Positions 1,299-19,994 of a DNA stretch of 30,495 nt are shown here, piece after piece. How positions within the stretch are numbered: the first letter of the stretch is position 1; the number at the start of each line of letters is the position of its first letter. The notes under the pieces were generated by a model that worked only from the letters and a program-made list of their open reading frames with translations, was not told where the DNA came from and searched no databases. Made by a program: the position numbers and the translations under genes. The DNA comes from Fidelibacterota bacterium (GTDB taxonomy: Bacteria > Fidelibacterota > Marinisomatia > Marinisomatales > TCS55): contig JBHHTW010000027.1 in assembly GCA_046861385.1 (NCBI GenBank), positions 1 to 30,495 of the forward strand. The letters are read 5' to 3'.

Positions 1299-1323
1299 AT
1301 TTCATTCATAAGGGCAATATATA

Positions 1324-2112
1324 TTATCTACCTCTCTCGAGATATCTCTGGGTAAAGAATTTCTCTGCTACCCCCTGGTTGATTTGTATGTTCTTATAGA
1401 GGAGTTCGGTACGATGCCCTGTTTTGATATTTTGCATTTCAATTAAATAAGCGCGCCATTTATCAGTACCATTTACAGATCGAATATCACCGGAATTCAT
1501 CATTTTAATAAGATCTCCTTTCTTGTTATAGAAATTTACTTTAGTGGATACATAATTATCTTTACGAATCCATACTTCAGATTTACTGTAGGCTGTCTCT
1601 TGCTTTACTTGTTCGTCAACAGGGATGGATTGAATGACAAAACACTCTACGCCATCGACAACTTCTTCCCGTAACAAAGTATACCGGTAATCTTCCAATT
1701 CATTTTGGTCAATATCTTCGTAAGAAAAATCAGAACCCATAAAACTATCGGTTTTTTCGCTGGAAGAAATTCTTCTTACCCGTTTTAATGCCGGCAGATA
1801 TAACCATTGATCTTCACGGTCGCCGTCTTCCACAGATAATAGCCCAACACCTTTTACATCTGCGGGAGAAAGAAATCGAATAAGAGTCTTATCATTGTTT
1901 TCACTATCCGTCTTTGAATATAGAACAACCTGGCGTTTCCGCTCTTTGCCCCGTTTATTTATCAGCTTCATAGTAAATTGAGATTCCTCATTCCGGGCTG
2001 TCATTTGACTCTCGTTTTTTTTCATAATTTCACGGGGCGATAAATCTTGTCCTACCCCAAAACTTGCGGATAGGAACATGACTATTGCTAATTGAATCGC
2101 TAAATTTTTCAT
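1324..2112 (-). CDS. Outer-membrane lipoprotein-sorting protein (LolA-like)
   Basis: Signal peptide; 'FLSPADVKG', 'DQWLYLPALKRVRRIS', 'SFMGSDFSYED' motifs. Confidence 0.85.
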   Translation of the reverse strand: MKNLAIQLAIVMFLSASFGVGQDLSPREIMKKNESQMTARNEESQFTMKLINKRGKERKRQVVLYSKTDSENNDKTLIRFLSPADVKGVGLLSVEDGDREDQWLYLPALKRVRRISSSEKTDSFMGSDFSYEDIDQNELEDYRYTLLREEVVDGVECFVIQSIPVDEQVKQETAYSKSEVWIRKDNYVSTKVNFYNKKGDLIKMMNSGDIRSVNGTDKWRAYLIEMQNIKTGHRTELLYKNIQINQGVAEKFFTQRYLERGR

Positions 2113-2150
2113 CGCTTTTTCTCCTTATTCACTGCACTAAAATATTATTT

Positions 2151-4526: not shown

Positions 4527-4579
4527 TAATATCTCCTATATAAAATTGACTACTATTTACTTCATGACTATCATTATAA

Positions 4580-4598
4580 TATTGACCAGCAGTCAGTA
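4580..4598. promoter_or_regulatory. Putative TetR operator (TATTGAC-N5-GTCAGTA)
   Basis: Near-perfect inverted repeat 54 nt upstream of the MMPL start; a related site lies upstream of tetR. Confidence 0.55.
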
Positions 4599-4648
4599 AC
4601 AGTATAAAAAAATTGCCCGGGACAGGGCTATGTATTTTTTTGATCATA

Positions 4649-5281
4649 TTATTTCTTTTTTAATCCTTCTATATAGATATCCACTGCGTGATCCAGAAGT
4701 GACTTTTCATCGGCTGATCTCATGAAATCTTTATACCCCTTATCACTGCAAAGAAAGAAGATTCCATTTGCAGTAGCCCAAAGGTTTAATGTCATTTTCC
4801 AAGCATCAACATTCCGAAATGTCCCTTCGCCGATACCTTTTTGAATAATGCCTTCTATCATCCGTAACATTTCTGTAGCCTGGCGCATACACGACTCATA
4901 AAGTTCCGGTGAAACTTTATCCCTTATATCTCCATGATGTAAAAAATATGTGATCTTAAAATAATCAGGGTAATTTTTATAAAAGTCATAATAGACAGCA
5001 GCAGTTTTCCTTATTAGTCCTTCGGCGGATAGGGAAGGCAGAAGTTCTTTCTGCATCATGTCCATAAATATTATATCTCCATCATGGAGTAAAGACAGGT
5101 ACAGTTCTTCTTTACTCTGGAAATATAAATATAGTGTCCCTTTACTCAGTTCGGATTTTTCGGCAATTTCATCCATGGTGGCAGATACCAATCCCTTGGA
5201 GAAAAATACTCCCTTGGCCGCCTGAAGGATGTCATCCCGCCGTTGTTGTTTTTCTTTTTCTTTTCTTTCTTTAATGCCCAT
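4649..5281 (-). CDS. TetR/AcrR family transcriptional regulator
   Basis: N-terminal HTH 'ATMDEIAEKSELSKGTLYLYFQSKEEL'. Confidence 0.95.
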   Translation of the reverse strand: MGIKERKEKEKQQRRDDILQAAKGVFFSKGLVSATMDEIAEKSELSKGTLYLYFQSKEELYLSLLHDGDIIFMDMMQKELLPSLSAEGLIRKTAAVYYDFYKNYPDYFKITYFLHHGDIRDKVSPELYESCMRQATEMLRMIEGIIQKGIGEGTFRNVDAWKMTLNLWATANGIFFLCSDKGYKDFMRSADEKSLLDHAVDIYIEGLKKK

Positions 5282-5400: not shown

Positions 5401-8049
5401 TTAAAGATTGAATAAATGATTAAATTTGATCAGAAAAATATTTTCCTGATCAGCGTCAAATAGATCATACAAATCATTTCCATAATTAAAATCACCCATT
5501 TCTACAAAATCTGTTATTCCCTGAGACCATACCAAATAAAGCGTTGATCCCGGGCGGTATTCCCATCGTAAAACCAGATTTGAATTAAACTGTCTATAAT
5601 TAAAATCTAAATTTGGAATTGAATAATTGAGTATATTGTCTGAATCTTCGTCGATCTCCCACATTTCAGTGTCTTGATTATAACTCATTTCGTCATCCGA
5701 ATATGAATAAAACCGTTCATCATAATTTTCACCTTTTGGATCTGTTAATTTTATAAAACGATCATATTTTCCCGCAGTAACAAACGGAGAACCGTAGTAT
5801 TGAAGAGATAAGTCAGGAGTTAAGGTCCAGTCCAGACGAAAGGTTGAAGAGAGTGTTTTTTGATCGAAGTGGGCGAGGAGATACTCATCAGTTTGATTCT
5901 GAATGTCGTAAGACGGTTCATAATCTGACCAATTCGCCCATGTATCTATTTGGTGGTCATAATTGATTGAGAATCTTAATAGAATATTTGTTACTGGACG
6001 CCAGTCAATATTCGAATTGATACCCGTCCATTTTGAACCCATGACAGCCTTTCCTCTGTGGCCATTAAAATTAATAGATAAATCTTTATTTTGATTGCTT
6101 CCTGCAAAAAACCAACCATTTAGCCCTCCATCTGTTTTAATTGAAGGTCCGCCCCAGAGCGCAGTTGTATGAAGACCAGGGCCATCATAGTTTATTCCCA
6201 TTCCAAAATTCCAGTAATTTAATAATGTTACTCGAAAATTAACATTACCACCGATTGGGTGAGCTTCTTGCCCAAAGTTGGTGGAATGCCAAATACTCAT
6301 ATTTGACTGACAATTTCGTAAATATTTTCCAGGGTCGTTTTCCTGACGACTTAACCACAGAAATTGCACCTGGTTATCTACATTTCTATGATACCCGAGA
6401 TCGTTGGCTTCAAAACCTGGAGAAAACACCCATTGCCCAACTCCCCATCGCCAATCACCGTTTACTTTGAATAACCCAACATTTTCAGTAAATCCGGTTA
6501 GATGAGTCGCGGAAGAATCAACATTTAAATACGAAGCATCGGATCGCTGAAAATAATGGTTAGAACTTCTCTGCGTATTAATGATGGCTTCAGGTTTTCC
6601 AATAACCTCGGAAAAGGCAACTCCGCCTAATATCATATAGGAATCATTGGCAAAAAGATGCGTAAAATCTAATCCAGCTGAATACGCATTCGAATGGAGC
6701 CATTCCAAATGAGCGTTATCAATTTTTCTGTTAGTCGCGGTGACTATTCCTCCAAATGTCGTCTTTCCTTCTCTAAAATCTTTTTGAATACGATTTACGG
6801 AATAATTTGTGAGTGGTTCAATCGTTTGTTTAAAACTTGAACTATCTACATATTCAATATTCGCGATTTCCTCCGACGTCAATGCATCTAAAATCCCAAT
6901 AGACCAGCCACTGCTGGTTTTTCCGCTTAGTTTTGCTGCCCCCAGGATCCGCGTTGAATTTGGTTCAGCGATATACCCATCGGAATATTCACCCCAGTTG
7001 GCACTGTAATGGGGGCTTCTTCCAATTCTTCTAGTATAAAATAATGAATTTCTACTTTGATCTCCATCTCCGATACCCAGTGCATAATTAAATATATTAC
7101 CACCTTCAACAAAAAACGGTCGTTTTTCTTCAAAATATGATTCGAAAGCAGACAAGTTGAGTTCAGCTGGATCAGCTTCCACCTGGCCAAAATCAGGATT
7201 GATTGTAATATCCAGAGTCAAATTATTGGTCACTCCGAATTTTACATCCAGACCTGTGGTATTCAGTAAATTATAGTTTTTCGGATGCACTGGGTTTTTA
7301 TATAGTTTTGAATGTTCGATTTGACCAGTTGTGTACGGAATAACTTGAAGTTGTTTTTGCTGCGGTATATCTTTTAGATTATTCAGCTCACCAAAATGTC
7401 TGACAAAACCCTGCTCATCCTTTGACCAGTAAGTCCAATAATCTTCCTCATTTTTAGTTGCTATTTGACGTTCGATTTGAAAGCCCCAAACTTGCGAGTC
7501 CGCTTTATCAAATCGCAGTTCCCTAAAAGGTATTTTAAACTCTGCTGACCAGCCTCCATCAAAATAGGTTGTTTCTCCTTCCCAGACGGCATCCCAGTTT
7601 CTATCAGAGTTTTCATCATCGGACCAGCGAATATCTCTTTTTACACCGTCAGGATTTAACCCAAACTGAAATGCAGTCCGGTTATCATTATAACTATCAA
7701 TATAGACATAAAGCCAATCACTGGGGGACCATTCATCCCGCCGGGTTAATACGCTTTTAATGGTATTTGGATCAGAATAGTATGCTTTGATACCAACATA
7801 TAAATTATCGAGGTCATAACAGACCGAGAATTCAGTCTGTTCCGAAGGGACCTCATTTTCAATAGGTTCGCGCTGGATAAAATCAAGTCTAAATCCTGCA
7901 TTTCCCCAAATGGGTTCTTCTAACGATCCATCAATAATAATACGGCCGCCATTTAGTTCCTTTGATGAATACACTTTCTCTGTAGCGAGAAGTGGAATAG
8001 TAATTATGATGAAATATATAATAGAAAAATAGTGTATTGTTTTGTTCAT
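5401..8049 (-). CDS. DUF5916 domain protein with N-terminal CBM9-like domain (outer membrane)
   Basis: 'IDGSLEEPIW', 'INPDFGQVEAD', 'EEKRPFFVEG', 'LFYTRRIG', 'NLVLRWEYRPGS' motifs; start at MNKTIHYF (8049) gives a signal peptide (ORF track start 8094). Confidence 0.85.
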   Translation of the reverse strand: MNKTIHYFSIIYFIIITIPLLATEKVYSSKELNGGRIIIDGSLEEPIWGNAGFRLDFIQREPIENEVPSEQTEFSVCYDLDNLYVGIKAYYSDPNTIKSVLTRRDEWSPSDWLYVYIDSYNDNRTAFQFGLNPDGVKRDIRWSDDENSDRNWDAVWEGETTYFDGGWSAEFKIPFRELRFDKADSQVWGFQIERQIATKNEEDYWTYWSKDEQGFVRHFGELNNLKDIPQQKQLQVIPYTTGQIEHSKLYKNPVHPKNYNLLNTTGLDVKFGVTNNLTLDITINPDFGQVEADPAELNLSAFESYFEEKRPFFVEGGNIFNYALGIGDGDQSRNSLFYTRRIGRSPHYSANWGEYSDGYIAEPNSTRILGAAKLSGKTSSGWSIGILDALTSEEIANIEYVDSSSFKQTIEPLTNYSVNRIQKDFREGKTTFGGIVTATNRKIDNAHLEWLHSNAYSAGLDFTHLFANDSYMILGGVAFSEVIGKPEAIINTQRSSNHYFQRSDASYLNVDSSATHLTGFTENVGLFKVNGDWRWGVGQWVFSPGFEANDLGYHRNVDNQVQFLWLSRQENDPGKYLRNCQSNMSIWHSTNFGQEAHPIGGNVNFRVTLLNYWNFGMGINYDGPGLHTTALWGGPSIKTDGGLNGWFFAGSNQNKDLSINFNGHRGKAVMGSKWTGINSNIDWRPVTNILLRFSINYDHQIDTWANWSDYEPSYDIQNQTDEYLLAHFDQKTLSSTFRLDWTLTPDLSLQYYGSPFVTAGKYDRFIKLTDPKGENYDERFYSYSDDEMSYNQDTEMWEIDEDSDNILNYSIPNLDFNYRQFNSNLVLRWEYRPGSTLYLVWSQGITDFVEMGDFNYGNDLYDLFDADQENIFLIKFNHLFNL

Positions 8050-8225
8050 TATCTTTTGATCCATTATTGTTTGATTTATATCAGACAATGTCATTATTAA
8101 TTTGTTGTCCGCATAAAATGTATTTTTAAAAAAACCAATCTTTCAATTCAAATGACCGATCTTATTTTATCATTTCGGATGAAAAGTCAGAGTGCCCTAT
8201 TCCAAGCTGGTTTCATGAAAATCTA

Positions 8226-8345
8226 TTAAATAAGCATGAGCATCCAAAACGGGCTGAAAGCCAGTGCCATAATTAAAACGGTAATCATCCAATTGAGATT
8301 TAAATAATCTGTTTTTTTCTGTTCCTTAACGGATATGGTAGTCAT
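8226..8345 (-). CDS. Small single-TM membrane protein, 39 aa (MTTISVKEQKKTDYLNLNWMITVLIMALAFSPFWMLMLI)
   Basis: Hand-translated and absent from the ORF track; AAGGA SD upstream, hydrophobic C-terminal half, sigma54-like promoter just upstream. Confidence 0.6.
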   Translation of the reverse strand: MTTISVKEQKKTDYLNLNWMITVLIMALAFSPFWMLMLI

Positions 8346-8380
8346 TTTTTTTCCTTTTCTTTTATATTTATCACTATTAT

Positions 8381-8396
8381 ATCAAACATCGTGCCA
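8381..8396 (-). promoter_or_regulatory. Sigma54 (-24/-12)-like promoter
   Basis: TGGCACGATGTTTGAT versus consensus TGGCACG-N4-TTGC(W); long AT-rich upstream region. Confidence 0.6.
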
Positions 8397-8641
8397 AAAG
8401 AGTCGATATATTCGTAAACCAATAAATATGTGTAGTTACAAACATTCTATTAATTGGAGACAGATGAGAATAACCATGCTATATTAATATGGATATATAA
8501 TATTGATATGAGTAATTGTTTTTGTTCATACGGTTTCACAATGAGCTGTTGAATTAATATGATTGGTAAATTAAACGATTCACATATCACTCACTTTCTC
8601 TGCCTGGCTCAAATGCATGTTAACAAGAGGATCCATGATCC

Positions 8642-9375
8642 TTATTGCCAACTACCTCCGATTTTCCTGATGGTTCCCGACCCACTTTTTTTGAGAAATA
8701 CATCTTCAGCCTCCCCAGCATATTTCACATCTCCACTGCCGCTGATCTGTGCATCAATATTTTTTTTCACCCAAACTGCCGCATCTCCGGATCCACTGAT
8801 TATGATAAAAGCTTCGTCACTATCAAGGTGCTCACCCGAATAGGTTCCGGAACCGCTAATCGTTATTTTTTGAGATCCAACTTCGCCGGCCAGATAACAA
8901 TTACCTGAACCGGAAATACTCATATTCAATTTATAAGATTGAATGGATTCTATTTCAACATTTCCAGAACCGCTGATCCTGATTTCTAAATGATCTGTTT
9001 CAATATTTTCAGACGTGATTTCTCCTGAACCGGAAATGGATAAACCCTGGATATTTTTCATTGTGATGAAATATTTAATTTTATTCGTGGCAGTTTTCAA
9101 AGGATTTTTCATCCAATGTCTATTTTTAACATCCAAGTAAAGTGTTCTGTTTCGCACATCTGATATGATTTCAGACATCATGTCCTCATCTGCTTCAACC
9201 GTAAGTATCTCTTGAGTTCCCTGGGTTAATATCACCTCGCCATATCCCCTTAATTCTATTTGATCAAATCCATTCACAGATCGATCATCTTTAATAACCT
9301 TTCCAAATGCGATTGAGCTGATGACTGTTGTTAAAACAAAGTTGTGTTCATTGCAAAACCTAATTTTTTAATCAT
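8642..9375 (-). pseudogene. Head GIN domain (DUF2807) protein, frameshifted in its signal peptide
   Basis: Repeated ISGSG beta-helix motifs; ATG at 9375 with AAGGA SD reads MIKKLGFAMNTTLF*, while the main frame reads ..FVLTTVISSIAFGKVIKDDRSVNGFD; the two frames are offset by 1 nt near 9340. Confidence 0.7.
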
Positions 9376-9596: not shown

Positions 9597-10133
9597 ATGA
9601 AGAAAATAATCATAACAACCTTACTCATTCTGCCGTTGATGGTGGCATCGGCGATCGTCCTAAATCAGTCAGCTGGAATTCTGGCCGGCGAAGGCCATGC
9701 CCGCACCCACGATTTTACCGTCACTGCAACCAGCTACGATTTGGATATCAGCGATACGGACACCAATGGAGAACGTTCAATTAAATTGACCGTTCCCGTC
9801 AAAGATATTGATACTGGAATCGGAATGCGTAATACCCATATGAGAACAAGTATGTTTGATCAAAAAAATAATCCGAACATTATTTTTACTGCCAATACTG
9901 ATGCAGAATTAGCCGTTGGATCAGTGGATCTGAATGGGGTTCTGACCATTAACGGTGTATCAAAAGCTCATGTATTAAACATAACTATAGAAAATAACTC
10001 AAACGACTTAATTGCCAGCGGTCAAACGGAAATTATACTCACGGAATTTGATCTACCCTTAGTTGGTATGGGACCCATGAAAATATTAGATCATGTCGAT
10101 ATGGCCTTTAACATAATTTTGCCAAAACAATAG
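9597..10133 (+). CDS. YceI family (lipid/polyisoprenoid-binding) periplasmic protein
   Basis: Signal peptide; 'VPVKDIDTGIGMRNTHMR', 'P.IIF', 'GVLTINGVSK' motifs; SD GAGGA. Confidence 0.85.
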   Translation: MKKIIITTLLILPLMVASAIVLNQSAGILAGEGHARTHDFTVTATSYDLDISDTDTNGERSIKLTVPVKDIDTGIGMRNTHMRTSMFDQKNNPNIIFTANTDAELAVGSVDLNGVLTINGVSKAHVLNITIENNSNDLIASGQTEIILTEFDLPLVGMGPMKILDHVDMAFNIILPKQ

Positions 10134-10141
10134 AAAATCTG

Positions 10142-10648
10142 TTGTTCGGAAATTTAGCGAGAATCAGCATTGTCATATTTACGATGGCAAGCGGGTTTAA
10201 TTACGCTCAGGACCTTCCTGATTCTGTACGGACTGCTGACAATGAGACCGTATCCTGGAAAGAGGTCAGGGATCAAAAGTGGGTTCTATTATATTTTTAC
10301 AGAGGAAATTGGTGAAAATATTGTAACCGGCAGGTTGCCGAAATCGTTGCCCGATACGATCAATTTTTAGATCTAAACTTGAAATTGGTCGCCATCAGCG
10401 CTGAATCTGCTACCGATAGTAAAACCATGAAGGACAGACACAAAGCACCTTTTTTGTTTATTGCGGATGAATCGCTGGAGCTTATCGATTATTATCAATT
10501 TAGAAACAACGATATTGCTCATCCGGGATTTAGTTTACTTCATCACGGCAACGTGGTGTGGAGACAGCGAGAAATGAAATTCATCCGTAAAGATGCACAA
10601 ACAATATTACGGCAGGTTCAAACTGCTCAACTGAATAGCAGCCCATAA
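10142..10648 (+). CDS. Peroxiredoxin-like (AhpC/TSA, redoxin) selenoprotein with UxxC motif
   Basis: One frame from TTG 10142 to TAA 10648 (168 aa) broken only by TGA at 10313-10315 in 'LYFYRGNW-U-KYC', matching FYRGxWCPxC; signal-peptide-like N-terminus; the 10379..10648 ORF is its C-terminal half; start codon uncertain. Confidence 0.85.
10323..10350 (+). promoter_or_regulatory. Bacterial SECIS-like hairpin
   Basis: CGGCA-GGT-TGCCG upper stem-loop (10328-10340) starts 12 nt after the TGA; GTAAC/GTTGC lower stem; G-containing apical loop resembles E. coli fdhF GCAGGUCUGC. Confidence 0.7.
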
Positions 10649-10665
10649 TAAAGAAAAGGTATTTA

Positions 10666-11613
10666 ATGACTAATCAACAACATGATTATGGTCCCATAGC
10701 CATATACCGCTCTAAATATCTCATCATTACGGTATTTGGATTGCTGGTAGGATTGGGGTTCTTTTTAGCCGCAATCCATGCATGGTTTTACTTGGGACTG
10801 AAATCCAGCCAATATCAAATACATCAAATATTAATTCTAGGATTTCGCTTGAGCATTTCAATCCCAATTGGTGCTTATCTGATGTCGCGAGCATTGGATA
10901 TGGGAAGATTATTTAGAGGTGAAATAACCCTTCCTGCATTTTTTCGCATACCTGGTTTTGCATTGTGGGGTGGATTATTCAGCGGAATCATTACAATCCT
11001 GGCAACGGCTCATCAATTCAATTGGGAATCATTATTCATTTTTGATGCTGCTGTTTTTGGATTGCCTCTTGCCCAGATGTTTGGACGAATTGGCTGCCTT
11101 AATTATGGATGCTGTCATGGACGTCCCCATGGCGGACGCTGGTCAATTAAATATCAGAATACCGAATCGAAAGTAATTCGAACTTATGCACATTTAAGGG
11201 GGATTGATTTATACCCCACTCAGGTTTACTCCGGGTTGGCAAATTTGGGTATTTATCTTATCATAATCAGCCTGGTTATCCTATTTCCTGCAGCTGAAAA
11301 AGGATTGTTGACCAGCGTTTATTTAATCCTGTACGGATTAAAACGATATATTATAGAATTTTTCCGTGGTGAATTCCCTAGGACCAGTTTTTTGGGACTT
11401 AGTCTCTGGCAATGGTTCAGCCTTGGATTTATTGCAAGTGGAATCATTCTTGGATTATCGCTGATGAATCCATTTTTTGGTTCTCCTACCCGGTATTTTT
11501 ATCTGTCCGATGGTTTCAGCATGGTCCTGGTACTCACGCCCATGACATTATTAGCCACCTCGATCATTACATTCATTTATTCACTCCATGGTAAACGAAT
11601 AGGAAATTGGTAA
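10666..11613 (+). CDS. Prolipoprotein diacylglyceryl transferase (Lgt)-like membrane protein, divergent paralog
   Basis: Multi-TM; 'GRIGCLNYGCCHG', 'PTQVY', 'YGLKRYIIEFFRG', 'SLWQWFS' motifs. Confidence 0.8.
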   Translation: MTNQQHDYGPIAIYRSKYLIITVFGLLVGLGFFLAAIHAWFYLGLKSSQYQIHQILILGFRLSISIPIGAYLMSRALDMGRLFRGEITLPAFFRIPGFALWGGLFSGIITILATAHQFNWESLFIFDAAVFGLPLAQMFGRIGCLNYGCCHGRPHGGRWSIKYQNTESKVIRTYAHLRGIDLYPTQVYSGLANLGIYLIIISLVILFPAAEKGLLTSVYLILYGLKRYIIEFFRGEFPRTSFLGLSLWQWFSLGFIASGIILGLSLMNPFFGSPTRYFYLSDGFSMVLVLTPMTLLATSIITFIYSLHGKRIGNW

Positions 11614-11615
11614 AT

Positions 11616-12695
11616 ATGAAAACAGATTATCCGGTCGCGATTATTGGAGCAGGTCCTTATGGACTGTCTCTGGCCAATCATTTGACTTATAATAATACTC
11701 CATTCATTATCTTGGGTAAACCGATGTCCCTCTGGAAAAGACATACATTTAATTCAATGAATCTCCGCTCGGATTATGCTACCTCGGAAATCTGCCATCC
11801 GACTGGTCAATTTGGATTCGAACGTTTTTGTTCAGATTTTCGTATCCCCCTGAATGACATTAAAGGACAACTTCCCGTGACAGTTTTTCGGAATTACATC
11901 GATTGGTGTCAGTCCCAATTTACGTTTCCAATTAGTCAGCAAATGGTGATCAACCTTAGAAAAACCAATGATGGATTTTTTATTAAAACAGATCAAAATG
12001 AATCATTTACTGCAAAAAAAGTGGTTGTCGCTACTGGAATTGCTCATCATCTTTACATTCCGAATGAGTTAAAAAACCATCCAAGTGTTGTCCACGGTTA
12101 CCACACTCGTCGAATCGAATCAATTCGTAAACAGAATGTATTGGTGGTGGGGGCAGGACAATCAGCTGCAGAAAGTATAGCCGTTTTGAAAGAAAACAAT
12201 AATTCAGTTGAATGGTATACTAGGCGCAACCCTATTTATTTTTCCGAACCGCTGAATATACCAAAATGGCTATTTAATCAAGTCATCCGTTTGCCGCGTT
12301 TTATTCGAATATTAAATCCACTCCTGATTCAGAAACTTTTTGCCTTATTTTCATCGACGACCGTGACTCCAAATTTCAAATCTGTTTTAGAAACGGTATT
12401 CCGTCATCGCACGCTGCCCAAGCTGGAGCAATACGATACTGTCGTTGCCGCCACAGGATACAGGTATAATTTGGGCGAGTTATCATTTATTAAACAATCC
12501 TTAAAATCCAGTATCCGTCAGCATAATAATTATCCAATGGTGTCACCGAGTTTTGAAACCAGTGTTCCGGGTTTATTTTTCCTTGGGGCGATTACTGAGC
12601 CGTTTTTTGGCCCGCCCATGAAATTTATGATCGGGGCTCGTTATAGTTCTGCTGTTCTGGCTCGTGCTCTGTATTCAGTTCAGTATGATTCTTAA
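11616..12695 (+). CDS. FAD/NAD(P)-dependent oxidoreductase (class B flavoprotein monooxygenase-like)
   Basis: Two Rossmann motifs GAGPYG and GAGQSA, 'VVVATG', 'AATGY', 'PGLFFLG'; ATG 11616 preferred over 11607. Confidence 0.8.
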   Translation: MKTDYPVAIIGAGPYGLSLANHLTYNNTPFIILGKPMSLWKRHTFNSMNLRSDYATSEICHPTGQFGFERFCSDFRIPLNDIKGQLPVTVFRNYIDWCQSQFTFPISQQMVINLRKTNDGFFIKTDQNESFTAKKVVVATGIAHHLYIPNELKNHPSVVHGYHTRRIESIRKQNVLVVGAGQSAAESIAVLKENNNSVEWYTRRNPIYFSEPLNIPKWLFNQVIRLPRFIRILNPLLIQKLFALFSSTTVTPNFKSVLETVFRHRTLPKLEQYDTVVAATGYRYNLGELSFIKQSLKSSIRQHNNYPMVSPSFETSVPGLFFLGAITEPFFGPPMKFMIGARYSSAVLARALYSVQYDS

Positions 12696-13515
12696 TCACG
12701 ATTCAGCTCTTCCGGTTCTATTGGAGTCTGCACCATCTTTGGCAGCATACTTGGGAGTTAAAAAAGTCACATTGGTAAGGGAAGATCTTTTGGACGGTGT
12801 GGGTGGAAAAAAACGACGAAGCCTCAATAATATTGTAAATGAAATACCTTTGGGAAAAAATATCCATATCTTATCTTACCAGGGATCTCATACAGCTTTA
12901 ACCCTGTCAGATTTATTACCGGATCATTCAATTATCCTATATGGAAAATCCTATCCAGGTGGAGGATACCGTGATTTTATGACCCAATTGCTTTCGGAAC
13001 GACCCAATGTAAGTCAATTTACAGGGTCGTTATTACCACTGTTGATTAAATACATAATGGCAAAATTTCAATATCCCCATGACTGGTTTATGAATTTTGG
13101 GGGTGCCGTAGGCCATGATGAAATGTATATATCTGCAGCAGAAAAAGCATATCAGAAGATAGGAAATTCAGCACACCATATTGTTCCAGTCGCCAGTGGT
13201 GATTTATTAAAAGCCCTTAAAACGATATTTTCACAGGTAACAGGCATTTTAACGCAACCATGGTACATTCGCATTGTTCAGCGATTCAGACTACCATCAA
13301 GCAGAGGGATGGTTGGCCGTTCGTATTCTGAACGTGAAAGTCTTGTGCGTGATATTTATTTGAAAACGGGATTTGCGTTTGACCCGGTATTTATGGGATC
13401 AGTACTGGAGTATTGCATGCGAAAGACACCGCACTTCGAACATATTTGCTTGTGGGTAACTTGTCCGGGAACCGTATCTGATTTTTTATTAAGTTTCGAT
13501 GATCATAATGGATAA
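12685..13515 (+). CDS. Divergent PLP fold-type II enzyme, ACC deaminase/D-cysteine desulfhydrase-like
   Basis: 'VREDLL..VGGKKRR' ~ KRDDL..GGNKxR; 'NFGG'; 'VPVASG'; 'TGFAFDPVFMG' ~ G..LDPVYTGK; overlaps the upstream stop. Confidence 0.6.
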   Translation: MILNHDSALPVLLESAPSLAAYLGVKKVTLVREDLLDGVGGKKRRSLNNIVNEIPLGKNIHILSYQGSHTALTLSDLLPDHSIILYGKSYPGGGYRDFMTQLLSERPNVSQFTGSLLPLLIKYIMAKFQYPHDWFMNFGGAVGHDEMYISAAEKAYQKIGNSAHHIVPVASGDLLKALKTIFSQVTGILTQPWYIRIVQRFRLPSSRGMVGRSYSERESLVRDIYLKTGFAFDPVFMGSVLEYCMRKTPHFEHICLWVTCPGTVSDFLLSFDDHNG

Positions 13516-13551
13516 TAGCATGAAAACAGATCTGATATTTCCAGTTATAAT

Positions 13552-15177
13552 ATGAAATCTCAACAGATAAAAATAGCCAGAATTTCAGATTTAGAGGATC
13601 GCCAACCAACATACGCTTTAGTCGGAAACACCGATTTGGTTATTATCAAATATGACAATAATATTTCCGTATTTTATGGTCGTTGTCATCATCGGGGGGC
13701 ATTACTCGCAGACGGATATATCAAGGGCAAAAATCTAATCTGTGGCGTTCACTTCTGGGATTATCGATATGATACAGGTGTGAGTGAATATAATAATGAT
13801 GAAGTGCTACACCGATTTTCCACGGATATTCAAGACGGTGATCTATATATTGATAAAGATGAAATATTGGCGTTTGAAAAAACGAATCCACAACCGTTTC
13901 AACGGGAGCAGTACCTGGGCACTTATGCGGATACCCACCCAGAGAGTACCGAGCCTTTTACGGCCTATGTCAAGGAGCTGGCGCAAAACGGTTTAAAAAA
14001 TGTGGGCGCTCACGGCTTCACCGCTGCCATGGGTGTGGATCGAAATATATTACCCAAGTGGGAAGACATTCAATTTCTCCCAGCCCAATTAGCCAAACGT
14101 CCATTGCTGGATGAAGAAGAAGTGTCGACGAAAGTTGTGATTGGCCCTCGAGCGAACAAACCATTAACATTAGACATGCCAATTTTTGTTTCTGATATGA
14201 GTTTCGGGGCCCTATCTCGAGAGGCGAAAATTGCCTTATCCAAAGGAGCGGAATTGTCCGGCACGGGAATCTGTTCCGGTGAGGGCGGCATGCTTCCAGA
14301 GGAACAGGAGAATAATTCACGATATTTTTACGAATTGGCATCAGCAAAATTCGGATTTTCCTGGGATAAACTTAAAAAAGTACAGGCGTTTCATTTTAAA
14401 GGAGGGCAGGGCGCTAAAACCGGAACAGGCGGTCACCTTCCCGGTGATAAAGTAAAGGGAGAAATCGCTGTTGTCCGAAATCTGCCGGAAGGTCAATCGG
14501 CTATTTCACCGGCGGCATTTGCTGATTTGAAATCACCAACAGATTTTCGCAATTTTGCTGACAAGGTGAGAAAAATATCAGGCGGAATCCCTATTGGATT
14601 CAAAATTGCCGCCAGTCATATAGAGGACGACATTCAATTTGCTCTTGATGCGAGTGCAGATTATATCATATTGGATGGCCGGGGCGGTGGCACGGGAGCG
14701 GCACCCACTGTATTACGAAATAATATTAATATTCCCACCATTCCGGCTTTGGCTCGGGCACGCCACTATTTGGATAAAGTAGGCGCGACTAATATCACAC
14801 TGATTATTACGGGTGGATTAAGAATCGCCGATGATATTGCGAAAGCACTGATGCTTGGTGCTGATGCGGTGGCAGTCAGTAATGCAGCATTACAAGCCAT
14901 TGGGTGTATTGGGATGCGGGCGTGCAACACCAATAATTGCCCTGTGGGGATTGCCACGCAAAAGGACCATTTGCGATCGCGGCTGTTGATTGATAAATCT
15001 GCGCAACAATTAGCCAATTATTTTTCAGCAACCAACGACTTGGTTAAGGTAATCACCCGGGCATGTGGATGTAATGATATTTCCCAACTCTCTGTAAATG
15101 ACCTCACTACCTTCAATAATACGATTCAAAAGTTAACAGGGATAAATTATTCCGGGTTATATACAGGCAAGAACTGA
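13552..15177 (+). CDS. Rieske [2Fe-2S] domain fused to FMN-binding glutamate synthase-like domain
   Basis: Rieske CHHRG...CGVH; 'MSFGALS', 'SGEGG', 'QGAKTGTGGHLPG.K', 'DGRGGGTGAAP', Fe-S motif 'CIGMRACNTNNCPVGIATQ'. Confidence 0.9.
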   Translation: MKSQQIKIARISDLEDRQPTYALVGNTDLVIIKYDNNISVFYGRCHHRGALLADGYIKGKNLICGVHFWDYRYDTGVSEYNNDEVLHRFSTDIQDGDLYIDKDEILAFEKTNPQPFQREQYLGTYADTHPESTEPFTAYVKELAQNGLKNVGAHGFTAAMGVDRNILPKWEDIQFLPAQLAKRPLLDEEEVSTKVVIGPRANKPLTLDMPIFVSDMSFGALSREAKIALSKGAELSGTGICSGEGGMLPEEQENNSRYFYELASAKFGFSWDKLKKVQAFHFKGGQGAKTGTGGHLPGDKVKGEIAVVRNLPEGQSAISPAAFADLKSPTDFRNFADKVRKISGGIPIGFKIAASHIEDDIQFALDASADYIILDGRGGGTGAAPTVLRNNINIPTIPALARARHYLDKVGATNITLIITGGLRIADDIAKALMLGADAVAVSNAALQAIGCIGMRACNTNNCPVGIATQKDHLRSRLLIDKSAQQLANYFSATNDLVKVITRACGCNDISQLSVNDLTTFNNTIQKLTGINYSGLYTGKN

Positions 15178-15441: not shown

Positions 15442-15518
<77 letters not shown>

Positions 15519-15840: not shown

Positions 15841-16068
15841 ATGGCTGAAACAGTAAAATCAACAGGCGTTTCAAAGGAAAAAGGTTATCTATACTACCTC
15901 GGTAAAGATGGCAATGTCTGGCGATCAAAGATGGCCCGCGCCGGTAAAGGCGGAGGCAATGCAGAAAAAGTGGCAGATGCTGGTGTGCAGCGCGAGTCAG
16001 GCTTTCTGTATTTTATCGACAAAAATGGTAACGTGGCTCGCGCCCCAATGGCAAGAGGCCGTAAATAA
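15841..16068 (+). CDS. Small basic protein with two internal repeats, unknown function
   Basis: GVSKEKGYLYYLGKDGNVWRSKMAR / GVQRESGFLYFIDKNGNVARAPMAR; strong SD; own promoter and terminator. Confidence 0.85.
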   Translation: MAETVKSTGVSKEKGYLYYLGKDGNVWRSKMARAGKGGGNAEKVADAGVQRESGFLYFIDKNGNVARAPMARGRK

Positions 16069-16173: not shown

Positions 16174-16572
16174 ATGAGCAATCCCAATCTTAAACAATCA
16201 AAAAAAATATGGTCGCTCTGGTTGATATTCAATTTATGGTCTTGTATGGATATGGGAATTGAATCAACGCAGACTATATTAGAAATTCCTATTCTTTATT
16301 CGAAAGACATTCAACCCATTTTCGACGCCAATTGCATTGAGTGTCATGGAAATACAAGCGGACTAAGTTTAACGTCGTATGATGAACTGATAAATGGCGG
16401 CGATCATGGGAACACTGTTATTCCTGGAAATAGCAATGAAAGTGTTATAATTCAAAAATTGGGAGAGAGTCCCCCTTTTGGTGATCGGATGCCATCCGGG
16501 TTGCCGCCGTTGGACCCAGCCCTGATAGATTTACTAATAACATGGATTGATTCCGGTGCTGAAAACAATTAG
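16174..16572 (+). CDS. Monoheme c-type cytochrome (Planctomycete cytochrome C-like), probable lipoprotein
   Basis: 'DIQPIFDANCIECHG', 'GLSLTSY', 'RMP', 'WIDSGA'; lipobox-like LWSC. Confidence 0.85.
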   Translation: MSNPNLKQSKKIWSLWLIFNLWSCMDMGIESTQTILEIPILYSKDIQPIFDANCIECHGNTSGLSLTSYDELINGGDHGNTVIPGNSNESVIIQKLGESPPFGDRMPSGLPPLDPALIDLLITWIDSGAENN

Positions 16573-17647
16573 TATCATATTAATGACTTCATCGATGTGG
16601 TCATTGCCGCGATTTGCGCTGCAGGAGGGAACCTCATGCAATCTTTGTCATGTGAATCCCTCTGGAGGAGGATTACGTAACGATTATGGCATCTCTGTAG
16701 CCAGTCAGGAACGATCCAAATACACCGGGGGACCGCTTGGAACAAGTTATACCGGGATGATCAACGACCATCTTCGCATCGGTGGAGATATACGATTTCT
16801 AAATTATAATACAATGGAAACTGATCAAATAAAAAGCGCATTGTTTCCTATGCAGGCGGATATTTCCAGTCATTGGAAAATGAGTGAGAAATTCAGTTTG
16901 GTTGTTAAACAAGATATGCTTCGCGGCAGAAATGATGTGTGGGTATTATGGAATGGTTTTTTAAAAAATGGGTTTCTTAAGATAGGTAAAGATACGCCAA
17001 ACTACGGAATTAAACTGGACGATCATACATCATTTATCAGAGGGGGAAACCTTAATAATAAAGTATTGCAAAACGAAGGATTAATATTTTCACCTTATTT
17101 AACATCACCAGGTATGTTAGAATGTGGGTTCACTTTTAATAATATTTTTGTCAGTCAATCTATAGCAAATCAATTTATAAAGGGTTCAAGTCAAGGCGGG
17201 TTTAATGAATATTTGCATGACAAAGCATTTACATCCCGGGTTGAATGGAGACCTTCATTCTACAATATCAATTCTCAACTGGGAGTATCATTTCTACAAC
17301 AGGGTTTAATTAGATTGAGTGGTATTTATGGTGGGCTTGCGACCAAAAAGATATCGTGGATGGGAGAAGTGGATGTTGCAGAGGAATATACATCCTCAGG
17401 TACATATTTAGTTTCTTACAGCGAATTAAATTATCATTTAAAAGGATATGACCTTCAACTAAAATATGATTTTTTTGACGAAGATATGGATACATTAGGG
17501 AATGCAATTCAGCGGATAACCGTTGGGTTTGAATTGGTTCCTATTCCATTTTTTGAAATTAGATTTCAAGCTCGTTTCACTGATTACACCGGAAACGAGG
17601 CTATTTTGAAAGAGGAATTTATCATTCAATTACACAGTTGGTTTTAA
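16547..17647 (+). CDS. Fused monoheme cytochrome c-porin (Cyc2-like architecture)
   Basis: Signal peptide, then 'LPRFALQEGTSCNLCHVNPSGGG.RN.YG', amphipathic beta-strands and C-terminal 'QLHSWF'; start TTG 16547 or GTG 16556. Confidence 0.7.
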   Translation: MIPVLKTISIILMTSSMWSLPRFALQEGTSCNLCHVNPSGGGLRNDYGISVASQERSKYTGGPLGTSYTGMINDHLRIGGDIRFLNYNTMETDQIKSALFPMQADISSHWKMSEKFSLVVKQDMLRGRNDVWVLWNGFLKNGFLKIGKDTPNYGIKLDDHTSFIRGGNLNNKVLQNEGLIFSPYLTSPGMLECGFTFNNIFVSQSIANQFIKGSSQGGFNEYLHDKAFTSRVEWRPSFYNINSQLGVSFLQQGLIRLSGIYGGLATKKISWMGEVDVAEEYTSSGTYLVSYSELNYHLKGYDLQLKYDFFDEDMDTLGNAIQRITVGFELVPIPFFEIRFQARFTDYTGNEAILKEEFIIQLHSWF

Positions 17648-17657
17648 GGAGATCGAA

Positions 17658-17999
17658 ATGCGAATATTCGTAATATTAATGATACTTTCACTACTATTTT
17701 GTGATGAAAAAAGTGAATTGAAAAATGTGAAAGTTTTACCATTCAAAACAAAAGCGGACATTATGAAATATATGAAATTGTCTGTGGCAGGTGAATTGGG
17801 AGTAAAATGCACATTTTGTCATAATATGAATGACTATAGCAGTGATGAAAACGAGCATAAATTAGTAGCCCGAAAAATGATGCAAATGGTCGTAAATATA
17901 AATGAAAACACAATGAAACCTTTAAAGAAGCATGAAATTTCATGCTGGACATGTCATCGCGAACAAAAACAACCGGAGCACAAAAAAAATGAAAATTAA
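17658..17999 (+). CDS. Diheme c-type cytochrome, reaction-centre cytochrome (PufC)-like domain
   Basis: 'KNVKVL', 'LGVKCTFCH', 'ARKMMQMV..IN', 'ISCWTCH'; SD AAGGAG; export signal. Confidence 0.8.
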   Translation: MRIFVILMILSLLFCDEKSELKNVKVLPFKTKADIMKYMKLSVAGELGVKCTFCHNMNDYSSDENEHKLVARKMMQMVVNINENTMKPLKKHEISCWTCHREQKQPEHKKNEN

Positions 18000-18705
18000 C
18001 ATAATCTTATTCAGTTGTTTTGCATGGATCGCATGCACATCCCCGGAAATGCCGGCCCCTGAGAACGTAATAAATGATATCCCGATACAACCTTTGCCGG
18101 CCAAAAAGGTTGTTTTGCCAAAGAAAAATTTACCCAAAGGCTGGACGGTTAACCGGGAAACATTGGCTGATTGGCAAAGCAGTTTACCGGAAGTATTGGG
18201 GATCTCTCTCGATACCAATACAAGTGCTGAATTCTGGGAAGAAGGAATAACATTAAAATCAGGAATTAAACTTCCTCTAAAACGGGCCAAAGTGACTTTT
18301 CATCATCAAACACGTATTACCAGCGAAGTCATTGAACTTCAATTTATTAATGTCGATTACTTATACAGTGTAACAAATTTTGAATCTTCCCACTTTGAGT
18401 TGGACGGTGTACTAAAAACAGTTGAGTTAAAGGAAACACGATTTCCTCAATTAACTGCTGATGATGTCCTGAGGCATAAAGTGCTCATGGTTTATGGGAC
18501 TCCGGATGATTTCGATGGCACTTGGCACAAATACAAGGATAAAGATACCAATTTTTCTGTCAGAGTCGTTGACGATAAGCATCTTGCAGTTCAGATGCGA
18601 AGCCGTGCCGTGGAGAAAAAATTGAAGCAGGCATTGCAGGATATGTATTCTGAAGAAGGAATTGAGTTGAGAAAACAGCAGCTCATGGACGGCTTTGACC
18701 TCTAA
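17989..18705 (+). CDS. Hypothetical lipoprotein
   Basis: MKINIILFSCFAWIAC lipobox-like start at 17989, followed by a Pro-rich linker. Confidence 0.65.
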   Translation: MKINIILFSCFAWIACTSPEMPAPENVINDIPIQPLPAKKVVLPKKNLPKGWTVNRETLADWQSSLPEVLGISLDTNTSAEFWEEGITLKSGIKLPLKRAKVTFHHQTRITSEVIELQFINVDYLYSVTNFESSHFELDGVLKTVELKETRFPQLTADDVLRHKVLMVYGTPDDFDGTWHKYKDKDTNFSVRVVDDKHLAVQMRSRAVEKKLKQALQDMYSEEGIELRKQQLMDGFDL

Positions 18706-18716
18706 TATATTAATAC

Positions 18717-19994
18717 ATGCTGAAATATACAGTTTTTTTATTCCTTCTTTCTGGGACGTCCCTTGCCCAAATAGTATCTGATATTGATATCCGCGGTCAT
18801 GTAATCACGAAAGAGTACGTCATTCAACGTGAAATACAACACTTGGTCAATGTGGAATTAGATAGTGTATTGGCAGAAGAAGATCGAGACAGAATAGAAA
18901 ATGTCGGTATATTTAGTGTTGTGGAATGGCGGACAGTTCCCTTAGAAGACGGAACGGTGGAATTGCAGTACCATGTGACTGAATCCATGCGGATTCTTCC
19001 AATTGTCGCGCCATCATACGAGGAAGATACTGGCTGGTCGATTGTGTATGGTGGAATTTTAAAAAATTTGAGAGGGAGGAACGAGTCATTAGTGATTGGT
19101 GGTTTATTCGGAGGTATTAATGCATATGGTATTGAGTTCAGCGATCCCTGGATTTTTGGCGATCATGTATCAGTATCATTTCAAATAGGAAAACATGTTT
19201 CTGACCATGTTTTTTTGCCCTTTGAGCGTCAAACATCGTCTTTTGAGATGAACGTGGGACGTTATTTTGGATATCAAAGAAAAATAAGCATTGGATTTGA
19301 AATTGAGAAAAAGAAATTTGTGGGTGATAGTACAACCATTAAATATGAGTATTTTGCACCTCAAGCCAGTATGGTCTATGATACTCGGGATATTTATAAT
19401 GATCCTTCGCAAGGTGTGTATTTTTTTCACTCAGTTCAGTATTTTCGCTTTTTAAATAAAAAAAGTAATTCATTGTTTTGGAATCAATCCTACAGTGCTT
19501 TTATTTCGCCAGTAAAAGGGAAGAATAAAACAACCCTCGGATGGAATATTACCGTCAATTCTGCTCATGGCGATTTATTTAAAGAAATATTTAAGTTTGG
19601 TCTGGGTGGCGGATATTCTGTTCGCGGGTGGCAGATTGAAAATCCCACTTTATATTCAGAGGGTACACAGAATTATCGGTTTGGCTATTTCAGCGCAGTT
19701 TCGTCCATCGAACTTCGTCAAACAGTCATACCACGATTTGCTATTCAGCAAAAATCACCATTTGGACCGATAAAATCTGAATTTGGTTTGCAGGGTGTTT
19801 TATTCGCAGATGCCGGAGTGATTGGGAATCATTGGAGTGAATTATACGAAAAAATCCCCATGATCGGATTCGGAATAGGTTTTCGAATACCCGTAGCGAT
19901 GGTTGGTACTCTACGGTTTGATTATGGATGGTCCTTTTATAAGGGTCAGGCGGTGGAATCGTCTTTCCACTTCTCAGCGGGACATAAATTTTAA
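18717..19994 (+). CDS. Omp85 (BamA/TamA family) outer-membrane protein with one POTRA domain
   Basis: POTRA 'IDIRGHVITKEYVIQREI', 'NLRGRN', 'YDTRD', 'GGGYSVRG', 'FADAG', 'GFGIGFR', 'RFDYG', terminal F. Confidence 0.88.
   Translation: MLKYTVFLFLLSGTSLAQIVSDIDIRGHVITKEYVIQREIQHLVNVELDSVLAEEDRDRIENVGIFSVVEWRTVPLEDGTVELQYHVTESMRILPIVAPSYEEDTGWSIVYGGILKNLRGRNESLVIGGLFGGINAYGIEFSDPWIFGDHVSVSFQIGKHVSDHVFLPFERQTSSFEMNVGRYFGYQRKISIGFEIEKKKFVGDSTTIKYEYFAPQASMVYDTRDIYNDPSQGVYFFHSVQYFRFLNKKSNSLFWNQSYSAFISPVKGKNKTTLGWNITVNSAHGDLFKEIFKFGLGGGYSVRGWQIENPTLYSEGTQNYRFGYFSAVSSIELRQTVIPRFAIQQKSPFGPIKSEFGLQGVLFADAGVIGNHWSELYEKIPMIGFGIGFRIPVAMVGTLRFDYGWSFYKGQAVESSFHFSAGHKF

Follow-up and report, generated by a model that had tools for sequence, protein, structure and literature searches.

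A conserved cassette of an Lgt paralog, a flavin monooxygenase, and a short PLP-fold enzyme in Marinimicrobia/Fidelibacterota

Gene order and conservation of the locus

The DNA analyzed here (the window) is the 30,495-nucleotide (nt) stretch at positions 1 to 30,495 of contig JBHHTW010000027.1 from the Fidelibacterota bacterium assembly GCA_046861385.1, whose genome (G000) comprises 2.43 Mb in 104 contigs and is 97.85% complete. On its forward strand lie six genes that an earlier note had put forward as a candidate operon for envelope redox chemistry or lipid modification. They encode, in order, a YceI-family protein with an N-terminal hydrophobic leader (9597..10133; 178 amino acids, aa; PF04264, 2e-17), an AhpC/TSA-fold redoxin containing selenocysteine (Sec) (10142..10648; 168 aa; PF00578, 3.2e-20), a paralog of the Lgt family (10666..11613; 315 aa; PF01790 LGT, 6.8e-27), a class-B flavin monooxygenase (FMO) (11607..12695; a 362-aa open reading frame, ORF, with a likely ATG start at 11616), a short homolog of fold-type-II pyridoxal phosphate (PLP) enzymes (12664..13515; a 283-aa ORF, 276 aa from the likely ATG at 12685), and a fusion of a Rieske [2Fe-2S] domain with a glutamate synthase flavin mononucleotide (FMN) domain (Rieske-GltB; 13552..15177; 541 aa; Pfam matches Glu_synthase, 9.3e-93, and Rieske, 1.4e-12). 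The shared direction of the six genes and the gaps of 8, 17, 2, −11, and 36 nt given for them earlier were reproduced with the ATG starts at 11616 and 12685; the latter overlaps the FMO stop and is the start in 276-aa database copies. All six domain calls were borne out, by Pfam for five of the proteins and by a structure match for the PLP-like protein, and no NCBIfam model scored above its cutoff for any of the six.

Conservation of the locus was followed from two seeds. The PLP-seeded set drew on 201 sampled genomes of the phylum and a scan of species representatives that gave 18 loci; the window proteins were mapped by tblastn onto these loci and onto wider stretches. A metagenome scan seeded with Lgt motifs gave 46 loci, 23 of the window type and 23 of a sister type. 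The PLP-like protein was found in 20 of the 201 genomes and in 5 of 78 genera, with 14 of the 20 genomes in genus g50. The FMO gene lay directly upstream of the PLP gene in all 18 PLP-seeded loci (the gap ranging from −30 to +39 nt), and the Lgt paralog gene lay directly upstream of the FMO gene in 15 of the 15 loci with sequence there; of the three loci outside this second count, two begin within the FMO gene and one (L048) is a degraded remnant. Among the window-type metagenome loci, the FMO gene was next to the Lgt paralog gene in 18 of the 21 that could be assessed (gaps of −3 to +24 nt), and two of the 23 were too short. The three core genes adjoined one another across lineages at 38 to 85% identity. 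Homologs of the window genes do co-occur across genomes, a point on which the earlier note had let its proposal stand or fall. Three related records with the submitter label "Lentisphaeria" consist of the same contigs as genomes placed in this phylum.

A more distant version of the same arrangement was present among the sister-type loci. When those with at least 1.5 kb of downstream sequence were inspected, 2 of 15 (the near-identical L084 and L085) carried a divergent triad in the same order, composed of an Lgt-like protein of 348 aa (27% identity), a protein of 392 aa resembling N-hydroxylating monooxygenases (NMOs) (34%), and a PLP-like protein of 308 aa (26%) that is 33% identical to a remote relative, P0043. 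The triad therefore predates the clade formed by the Marinimicrobia orthologs. The cassette has so far been seen in a few deep-sea Marinimicrobia/Fidelibacterota lineages and in this one more divergent lineage.

We considered whether the adjacency of these genes might be due to chance. The flanks of the cassette differ in every lineage, as might be expected of unrelated neighbors, and scans for promoters (30 promoter-like sites versus 21.1 expected) and terminators (2 terminator-like sites versus 5.1 expected, neither between cassette genes) were uninformative. However, the same order and tight spacing persist from 85% down to about 26 to 34% identity, a synteny that contradicts chance adjacency and makes it extremely improbable. 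Because the three core genes stay adjacent across lineages at 38 to 85% identity, we do not regard the arrangement as accidental. These results show that the three core genes form an evolutionary unit, and we consider it highly probable that the order Lgt paralog, FMO, PLP enzyme represents a real, conserved cassette to which the Rieske-GltB gene does not belong. From the six-gene operon proposed earlier, this core was retained, YceI and the redoxin proved dispensable, and the last gene, already suspected of being independent, fell outside. The note had further suggested that the cytoplasmic enzymes make or modify an amino-acid-derived, possibly S/Se-containing, group, which the Lgt-like protein would lipidate or transfer and which YceI and the selenoprotein would handle outside the membrane; these roles are hypothetical. 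The earlier note had also not recognized the combination as a described pathway, and the literature search, covering listings and abstracts, likewise returned no publication describing this cassette.

The Rieske-GltB gene was a candidate member of the cassette that we rejected. It was not seen within the flanks examined of any other cassette locus. In the congener G123 its ortholog (88% identity) is on contig C36 and the cassette is on C29, and the congener G198 has an ortholog (85%) and yielded no match to the PLP query. The terminator scan placed no terminator-like site in the 36-nt gap before the gene, so that transcription may read through into it in this genome. Just past it, at the point where synteny with the congener breaks, lies a tRNA-Arg(TCT) gene (15442-15518, minus strand).

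The composition of the genes upstream of the core varied among lineages. In g1 (the window and L021) the order is YceI, Sec-redoxin, triad; in G162 (L049) the redoxin precedes YceI and the triad; in L045 and L046 YceI is followed by the triad; and in L114 YceI is followed by the Lgt paralog and the FMO gene, inside which the contig ends. YceI is directly upstream of either the Lgt paralog or the redoxin in these six loci. Four loci (L037, L044, L094, and L095) have the Sec-redoxin and the triad, with no YceI within 0.4 to 1.9 kb upstream, and in g50 the triad stands alone, convergent with an ergothioneine (egt) operon. A last arrangement has YceI and the Lgt paralog without the FMO and PLP genes; it is found in L104 to L106, in L144 (G030), and in the partial locus L142. 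In L104 to L106 the order is TetR, YceI, Lgt paralog, and no FMO gene follows despite at least 1.2 kb of downstream sequence; L105 and L109 belong to one assembly, and L109 carries the complete triad. G030 is a 100% complete genome and has no PLP match. The converse, an FMO-PLP pair without an Lgt-like gene, was not seen among the loci examined.

Two further observations were made at these loci. The congener G123 has a second, degraded copy (L025/L048; G123:C34:17946-18755) in which FMO residues 7 to 65 abut PLP residues 98 to 275; it holds one in-frame TGA and looks like a deletion remnant of an FMO-PLP pair. Upstream of the YceI-triad genes of L045 (4582-7125) are genes for a geranylgeranyl-reductase-like flavoprotein, a Caroten_synth membrane protein, and an AhpD/CMD-family protein, which hint at isoprenoid and redox functions in this one lineage.

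The three core proteins

The Lgt paralog (10666..11613) matched PF01790 with 94.8 bits (gathering threshold, 24.9) and fell below the NCBIfam equivalog cutoffs (NF000778, 105.1 versus 334; TIGR00544, 65.6 versus 118.9). A separate, canonical Lgt is encoded on contig C10 of G000 and scored 182.7 bits in a genome search in which the paralog scored 95.1 bits, which would argue against the paralog being the enzyme that lipidates the lipobox proteins of this genome. To our knowledge, lipidation of lipobox proteins is the only function described for Lgt. The orthologs of the paralog form a tight group of 29 at E values of ≤1e-46, and the next matches are ordinary Lgts of about 257 aa at 3e-20. All 29 contain GR[ILFVW]GCLNYGCCHG, and most end in HG[KR][KR][IVL]GxW after a C-terminal extension of about 60 aa with an extra hydrophobic stretch. 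As in canonical Lgt, the motifs GR..G and Y-G-x-K-R-x-x-x-E-x-x-R are kept; the window protein and most orthologs have GRIGC... and YGLKRYIIEFFR, and 25 of the 29 match the regular expression for the second motif. In E. coli Lgt, these motifs hold essential residues, namely Arg, Tyr, and Glu (R143, Y235, R239, and E243). The paralog thus shares its Pfam family and these motifs with E. coli Lgt but differs from it in standing in a clade of its own, with the invariant NYGCCHG and the C-terminal extension, and in being tied to enzymes that are not concerned with lipoproteins.

The paralog has Cys-Cys where the canonical Lgt of G000 has Asp-Asp. The earlier note had singled it out as Cys-rich, and the motif is indeed there, but it is no peculiarity of the paralog: GC...GCC[YH]G was present in all 47 non-orthologous Lgt matches (P0104-P0150), a list biased toward sequences that share words with the query. 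We therefore rejected this trait as a special feature.

A sequence search of the PDB gave no match to the paralog at an E value of ≤0.01. Its Atlas model aligned to Lgt-domain clusters, those of Acidobacteriota, Myxococcota, and Thermodesulfobacteriota among them, with template modeling (TM) scores of 0.78 to 0.79, and among its Atlas neighbors were Lgt proteins fused to the lipid enzymes PEMT and PAP2. Members of a sister clade (P0139, P0141, and P0142) share the architecture at 24 to 27% identity, with GC[YH]NYGCCVG and the C terminus HGK.LGT. In L071 (7175-9652) a sister-clade Lgt-like gene is directly downstream of a gene for a PlsC-type acyltransferase, and in L083, L086, L088, and L089 such genes lie between LolA_like/DUF1329 and methyltransferase/MMPL genes; in L088 (6521-12063) the order is LolA_like, the Lgt-like gene, and then a UbiE-like methyltransferase and MMPL. 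The neighbors of the sister clade and the Atlas fusions suggest a lipid-metabolic flavor for this part of the Lgt family, and from them we infer that the paralog may act on a target other than a lipobox protein. A non-lipoprotein role, in lipid or small-molecule chemistry, appears plausible for the paralog, with a likelihood that we would place just short of even.

The retained Lgt motifs are also what would be expected if the paralog were a second, specialized Lgt that S-lipidates dedicated envelope proteins through non-lipobox or C-terminal Cys tags, with the FMO and PLP genes being unrelated or regulatory. Actinomycetes have duplicate Lgts that both act on lipoproteins, and the occurrence of the paralog without the FMO and PLP genes in some genomes also agrees with this explanation. 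So does a passage of PMC11980579 that postulates an unidentified "Lgt-like" enzyme for MYXO-CTERM proteins. Against it, no Cys was found in the leader or at the C terminus of either YceI or the redoxin in the window sequences, and the paralog is far under the equivalog cutoffs in a genome that also has a canonical Lgt. Furthermore, specialized lipidation does not explain why the FMO and PLP genes come so strictly with an Lgt-like gene, their stops and starts overlapping or nearly abutting. We consider this explanation rather unlikely.

The FMO (11607..12695) matched Pyr_redox_3 (PF13738; 87 bits, 1.7e-24) and Lys_Orn_oxgnase (PF13434; 57.8 bits versus 21.3, 1.4e-15), both above their cutoffs. 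Its sequence matches in the PDB were weak (monooxygenase 6xbb, 2.1e-6; a TrxR-like FNR, 1.4e-6). When a structural model (pLDDT, 84.8) was searched with Foldseek, the best match was DesB (6xbb, 1.4e-17), and FMO 4usr, PvdA (3s61), and SidA were also recovered. The N-hydroxylases DesB, PvdA, SidA, DfoA, and Lys 6-monooxygenase gave TM scores of 0.72 to 0.78, the small bacterial FMOs 4usr, 4usq, and 4a9w gave 0.66 to 0.70, and the bacillithiol-disulfide reductase YpdA gave 0.66. Fifteen orthologs had the motifs GxGPYG, GxGQSAxE, and D...TG(Y) in common. Judged by its model, the protein is a class-B FMO of the N-hydroxylase (SidA/IucD/PvdA) or small-FMO type; it shares the two-Rossmann fold (TM, 0.66 to 0.78) and the dinucleotide and ATGY motifs with DesB, PvdA, SidA, DfoA, 4usr, and 4a9w, at 14 to 20% identity and with a length of about 360 aa, compared with 415 to 450 aa for NMOs. 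It belongs to a large wider family, with 3790 members at E values of ≤1e-15 among 8000 candidates scored and with homologs at 30 to 39% identity named from Acidobacteriota and others. A role as a disulfide reductase of the CxxC or YpdA type was also considered and was rejected because no Cys is invariant across the 15 orthologs.

The resemblance to N-hydroxylases raises the possibility that the product of the cassette is an amphiphilic metal chelator of the hydroxamate type: an amine formed by the PLP enzyme would be N-hydroxylated by the NMO, and the Lgt paralog would anchor the product to lipid. The best structural matches of the FMO are the five N-hydroxylases named above, and NCBI names some of its orthologs "SidA/IucD/PvdA family monooxygenase." However, 4usr, 4usq, 4a9w, and YpdA score nearly as well, and Pyr_redox_3 outscores the NMO Pfam model. 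In addition, no siderophore genes, whether for an acyltransferase, an NRPS-independent siderophore (NIS) or nonribosomal peptide synthetase (NRPS), a TonB receptor, or an iron regulator, were present at any annotated locus. These comparisons make a chelator pathway very unlikely.

The short PLP-like protein (12664..13515) had no match in Pfam, including PF00291, or in NCBIfam. Its AlphaFold model (pLDDT, 86.1; pTM, 0.83) matched by Foldseek the D-Cys desulfhydrases 7ysk and 4d8u, the 1-aminocyclopropane-1-carboxylate (ACC) deaminase homolog 1j0a, CJ0600 (9jqf), CysM, and SbnA, with E values of 4e-11 to 5e-9 and query-normalized TM scores of 0.63 to 0.71. An Atlas model gave a TM score of 0.80 to a cluster of the D-Cys desulfhydrase family. 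The family is rare, a HMMER profile having recovered 63 proteins, 11 of them at E values of ≤1e-30, among 1.84 billion representatives; a scan of viral contigs for remote relatives found none. Among the 20 remote matches scanned, PF00291 (PALP) was above its cutoff in 3 and below it in 6 more. A 16-sequence profile gave only nonsignificant matches in the PDB, and a 47-sequence profile that included remote relatives matched 9jqf (2.2e-6) and 1j0a (1.7e-3). Invariant in 16 orthologs are R-x-D-x-L...GGKK.R.L, S-Y-x-G-S, A-S-G, D-P-x-F-M-G, and C-x-W-x-T. The 47-sequence profile aligned GG[KN]K to the GGNK PLP-lysine motif of 1j0a and 9jqf and DPVFMG to the DPVYTG of 1j0a. By the model and these alignments, the protein has a fold-type-II PLP fold in which the Schiff-base lysine motif is kept, in agreement with the ACC-deaminase fold named in the earlier note.

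Compared with ACC deaminases and D-cysteine desulfhydrases (1j0a, 4d8t, 7ysk, and 9jqf), which it matches in fold at E values of about 1e-10 to 1e-11, the protein is 50 to 60 residues shorter and has Phe-Met in place of the Tyr-Thr of DPVYTG. The invariant F236-M237 of the 16 orthologs is at the Tyr position of DPVY[TE]G, where remote relatives have His. This Tyr is catalytic in ACC deaminase and D-Cys desulfhydrase. Because it is replaced by Phe, we did not file the protein as a desulfhydrase or an ACC deaminase. A prediction of an FMO-PLP complex scored 0.00 against a mark of 0.32, with controls not run, and speaks neither for nor against binding.

YceI, the selenoprotein redoxin, and the egt neighborhood

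Export of both YceI (9597..10133) and the redoxin (10142..10648) is predicted from their N-terminal hydrophobic stretches alone. An ortholog of YceI was found in 35 of the 201 genomes, 16 of which had no PLP match, at up to 55% identity. Because of these 16 genomes, YceI is a frequent but not an obligate partner of the cassette, and exclusivity to the cassette was rejected on the same count. In genomes of family f1 that lack the cassette (L133, L134, L136, and L137), YceI adjoins DUF5916, as it does in the window, and in g1 it may have been an insertion neighbor of the cassette.

The redoxin is read through a single in-frame TGA (10313-10315) that joins the ORFs 10142-10315 and 10379-10648, giving the motif FYRGNW-U-KYC with U58. 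In each of the five redoxin orthologs examined, the TGA occupies an identical position within YRG[NHY]W-U-xxCNRQVA, and G000 has the machinery for Sec decoding (SelB, 359.7 bits; SelD, 403.6 bits; and tRNA-Sec). A candidate minimal bacterial selenocysteine insertion sequence (SECIS) hairpin (10323..10340, plus strand; CGGC-AGGUU-GCCG or a 6-bp alternative) lies 8 to 13 nt after the UGA. RNAalifold kept 4 pairs in 4 to 5 of 5 sequences without compensatory change, the minimum free energy (z-score, −1.13) was not distinguishable from that of shuffled sequences, and an Rfam search of the window returned the tRNA-Arg only and no SECIS family; alone, the hairpin is weak evidence. Because the hairpin shows no covariation and an energy no better than that of shuffles, the Sec call is based on conservation of the UGA together with the presence of decoding machinery. 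Compared with PrxU-like and SelL-related selenoproteins, the redoxin has the AhpC-TSA fold with U in the redox motif, but its matches to NCBIfam models, SelL_rel_redox and PrxU among them, were weak and far below cutoff (37 versus 120 and 27 versus 270), and it has a UxxC motif, a leader peptide, and an Lgt paralog in the same putative operon. The redoxin gene is missing from the cassettes of L045, L046, and genus g50. The SelD gene itself (G000:C97:10536-11462) has one in-frame TGA and probably encodes a selenoprotein too.

In g50 the triad is head-to-head with genes for TetR and a metallo-β-lactamase (MBL) hydrolase and tail-to-tail with the cluster YceI-EgtB-unk282-ABC-OpuAC/permease-EgtD-DUF427-YtfJ, whose EgtB (TIGR03440, 576 bits) and EgtD (TIGR03438, 366 bits) are both over their cutoffs. 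This neighborhood is suggestive of an alternative in which the cassette would serve a low-molecular-weight thiol or selenol, running parallel to ergothioneine-type chemistry or feeding it, with the PLP enzyme as a C-S or C-Se β-lyase, the FMO as an S/Se-oxygenase, the redoxin as reductant, and the thiol as the target of the Lgt paralog, unless the paralog were no more than an anchor for the system. The egt cluster to which the g50 triad is convergent has no recognizable EgtE or EgtC, EgtD was matched in 16 of the 20 triad-positive genomes, and the triad-positive G115 has a YceI ortholog beside its egt cluster. In addition, the nearest solved folds of the PLP enzyme are D-Cys desulfhydrases, the redoxin is a selenoprotein in all five orthologs, and, by analogy with the ergothioneine logic of EgtB and the PLP C-S lyase EgtE, S-oxygenation combined with a PLP lyase on a Cys thioether would fit the three enzyme classes. 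However, EgtD and EgtB were not found in G000, EgtD went unmatched in 4 of the 20 triad-positive genomes, and of the 41 genomes among the 201 with such a match (38 over the cutoff), about 25 lack the triad. No triad gene was present at any of the 16 egt loci that were examined (14 came from PLP-negative genomes), and 15, all except that of G115, had no YceI. The core enzymes have no homology to EgtB or EgtE, egtB and egtD adjoin the triad in g50 only, and the PLP enzyme has Phe at the position of the Tyr on which desulfhydrases and ACC deaminases rely. Finally, unk282 accompanies egt clusters whether or not a triad is there (L132) and is itself a candidate for the missing step. We consider a thiol or selenol cassette unlikely, and an obligatory link of the cassette to ergothioneine was rejected, given that G000 has neither EgtD nor EgtB and that the egt loci carry no triad gene.

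The egt clusters themselves showed some regularities. In L029/L053 (G032:C4, 603-7992) and its equivalents (L051-L059 and L097-L113), OpuAC is fused to the permease, and neither EgtC nor EgtE was recognizable. EgtB and EgtD occur with the ABC/OpuAC pair in 11 of the 16 egt loci across the phylum, and the unannotated unk282 (about 280 aa) travels with the clusters of G115 and G021.

A possible role in lipid conjugation

We tentatively favor, at somewhat less than an even likelihood, the reading that this is a lineage-restricted envelope cassette in which a neofunctionalized Lgt paralog makes an amino-acid-derived lipid conjugate and the soluble FMO-PLP pair supplies or tailors the head group. 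The paralog would no longer lipidate lipobox proteins; it would instead move a diacylglyceryl-type group off a membrane phospholipid and onto a nonprotein nucleophile derived from an amino acid, on the outer side of the inner membrane. In the cytoplasm, the PLP enzyme would carry out a β-elimination or β-replacement on an α-amino acid to provide the head group, which the monooxygenase would supply or tailor by N- or S-oxygenation. YceI, as a lipid-binding periplasmic protein, could be an optional helper that carries the lipid, and the UxxC redoxin could be an optional periplasmic helper that keeps a thiol or selenol reduced. Among the loci examined, the soluble pair was only seen with an Lgt-like gene and the paralog was also seen without the pair, which is the pattern of precursor-supplying or tailoring enzymes.

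More specific versions of this conjugate reading are less probable. One coherent scheme would have the paralog form a thioether on a cysteine-type thiol, followed by S-oxygenation by the FMO and C-S β-elimination by the PLP enzyme; it would follow the same logic as EgtB/EgtE and as FMO with cysteine-conjugate β-lyase, and we regard this particular route as unlikely. We would give a similarly low likelihood to the proposal that this branch of the Lgt family makes free, phosphorus-free aminolipids of a thioether type or with N-oxygenation. The paralog would replace a phospholipid head group by an amino-acid-derived thiol, selenol, or amine at the periplasmic face, and the dedicated monooxygenase and PLP lyase would do the tailoring, with YceI as carrier and the selenoprotein as reductant.

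Several points weigh against the conjugate reading. The loci that have the paralog and YceI without the FMO and PLP genes (L104-106 and L144) indicate that the soluble pair is not needed for the action of the paralog. The active site of E. coli Lgt faces the periplasm, whereas the FMO and PLP enzymes have no leader, so that the reading does not account for the flipping or export that such a topology would require. The lipid-gene neighbors belong to sister clades at only 23 to 33% identity, YceI occurs at 50 to 55% identity without the cassette and could be a mere insertion neighbor in family f1, and the counts are not independent, since g50 contributes 14 of the 20 PLP-positive genomes. As far as sequences go, they reveal no substrate for the cassette enzymes. 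A strict five- or six-gene pathway is further weakened by YceI without the cassette, by YceI and the paralog without the soluble pair, and by cassettes that lack the redoxin.

The coupling of an Lgt paralog to a monooxygenase and a PLP enzyme, together with sister clades beside acyltransferase, MMPL, and LolA-like genes, suggests that membrane chemistry of other kinds has recruited the Lgt family. If the conjugate reading is correct, the cassette would offer a way into the unknown envelope lipids of Marinimicrobia, a phylum that is abundant in the ocean and has hardly been cultured, would assign a function to an orphan PLP family that is rare (63 matches in 1.84 billion representatives), and would give genomic context to an exported UxxC selenoprotein. 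If free lipids are made, deep-sea bacteria would have a new lipid class and new Lgt enzymology, and should the cassette prove to be a second pathway for lipoproteins, it would still represent a new Lgt system dedicated to specific clients.

Other features of the window lie to both sides of the cassette. At 18-5281 (minus strand), 4 to 9 kb upstream, is a putative lipid-export cluster with DUF1302 porin-like, LolA_like/DUF1329, MMPL/RND, and TetR genes; its LolA_like and MMPL families also flank the sister-clade Lgt-like genes in L083, L086, L088, and L089. Between this cluster and the cassette, at 5401-9277 (minus strand), are genes for an 897-aa DUF5916/CBM9 protein of an outer-membrane type and a DUF2807 protein. 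Downstream, a 75-aa ORF (15841-16068, plus strand) without a Pfam match has two repeat units of about 25 aa, G[YF]LY[YF]..K.GNV.R..MARG. It is followed at 16174-19994 (plus strand) by c-type cytochrome-like genes (PSCyt1 and CytoC_RC), two unannotated ORFs, and a gene for an Omp85-family protein, which may together form a periplasmic or outer-membrane electron-transfer module.

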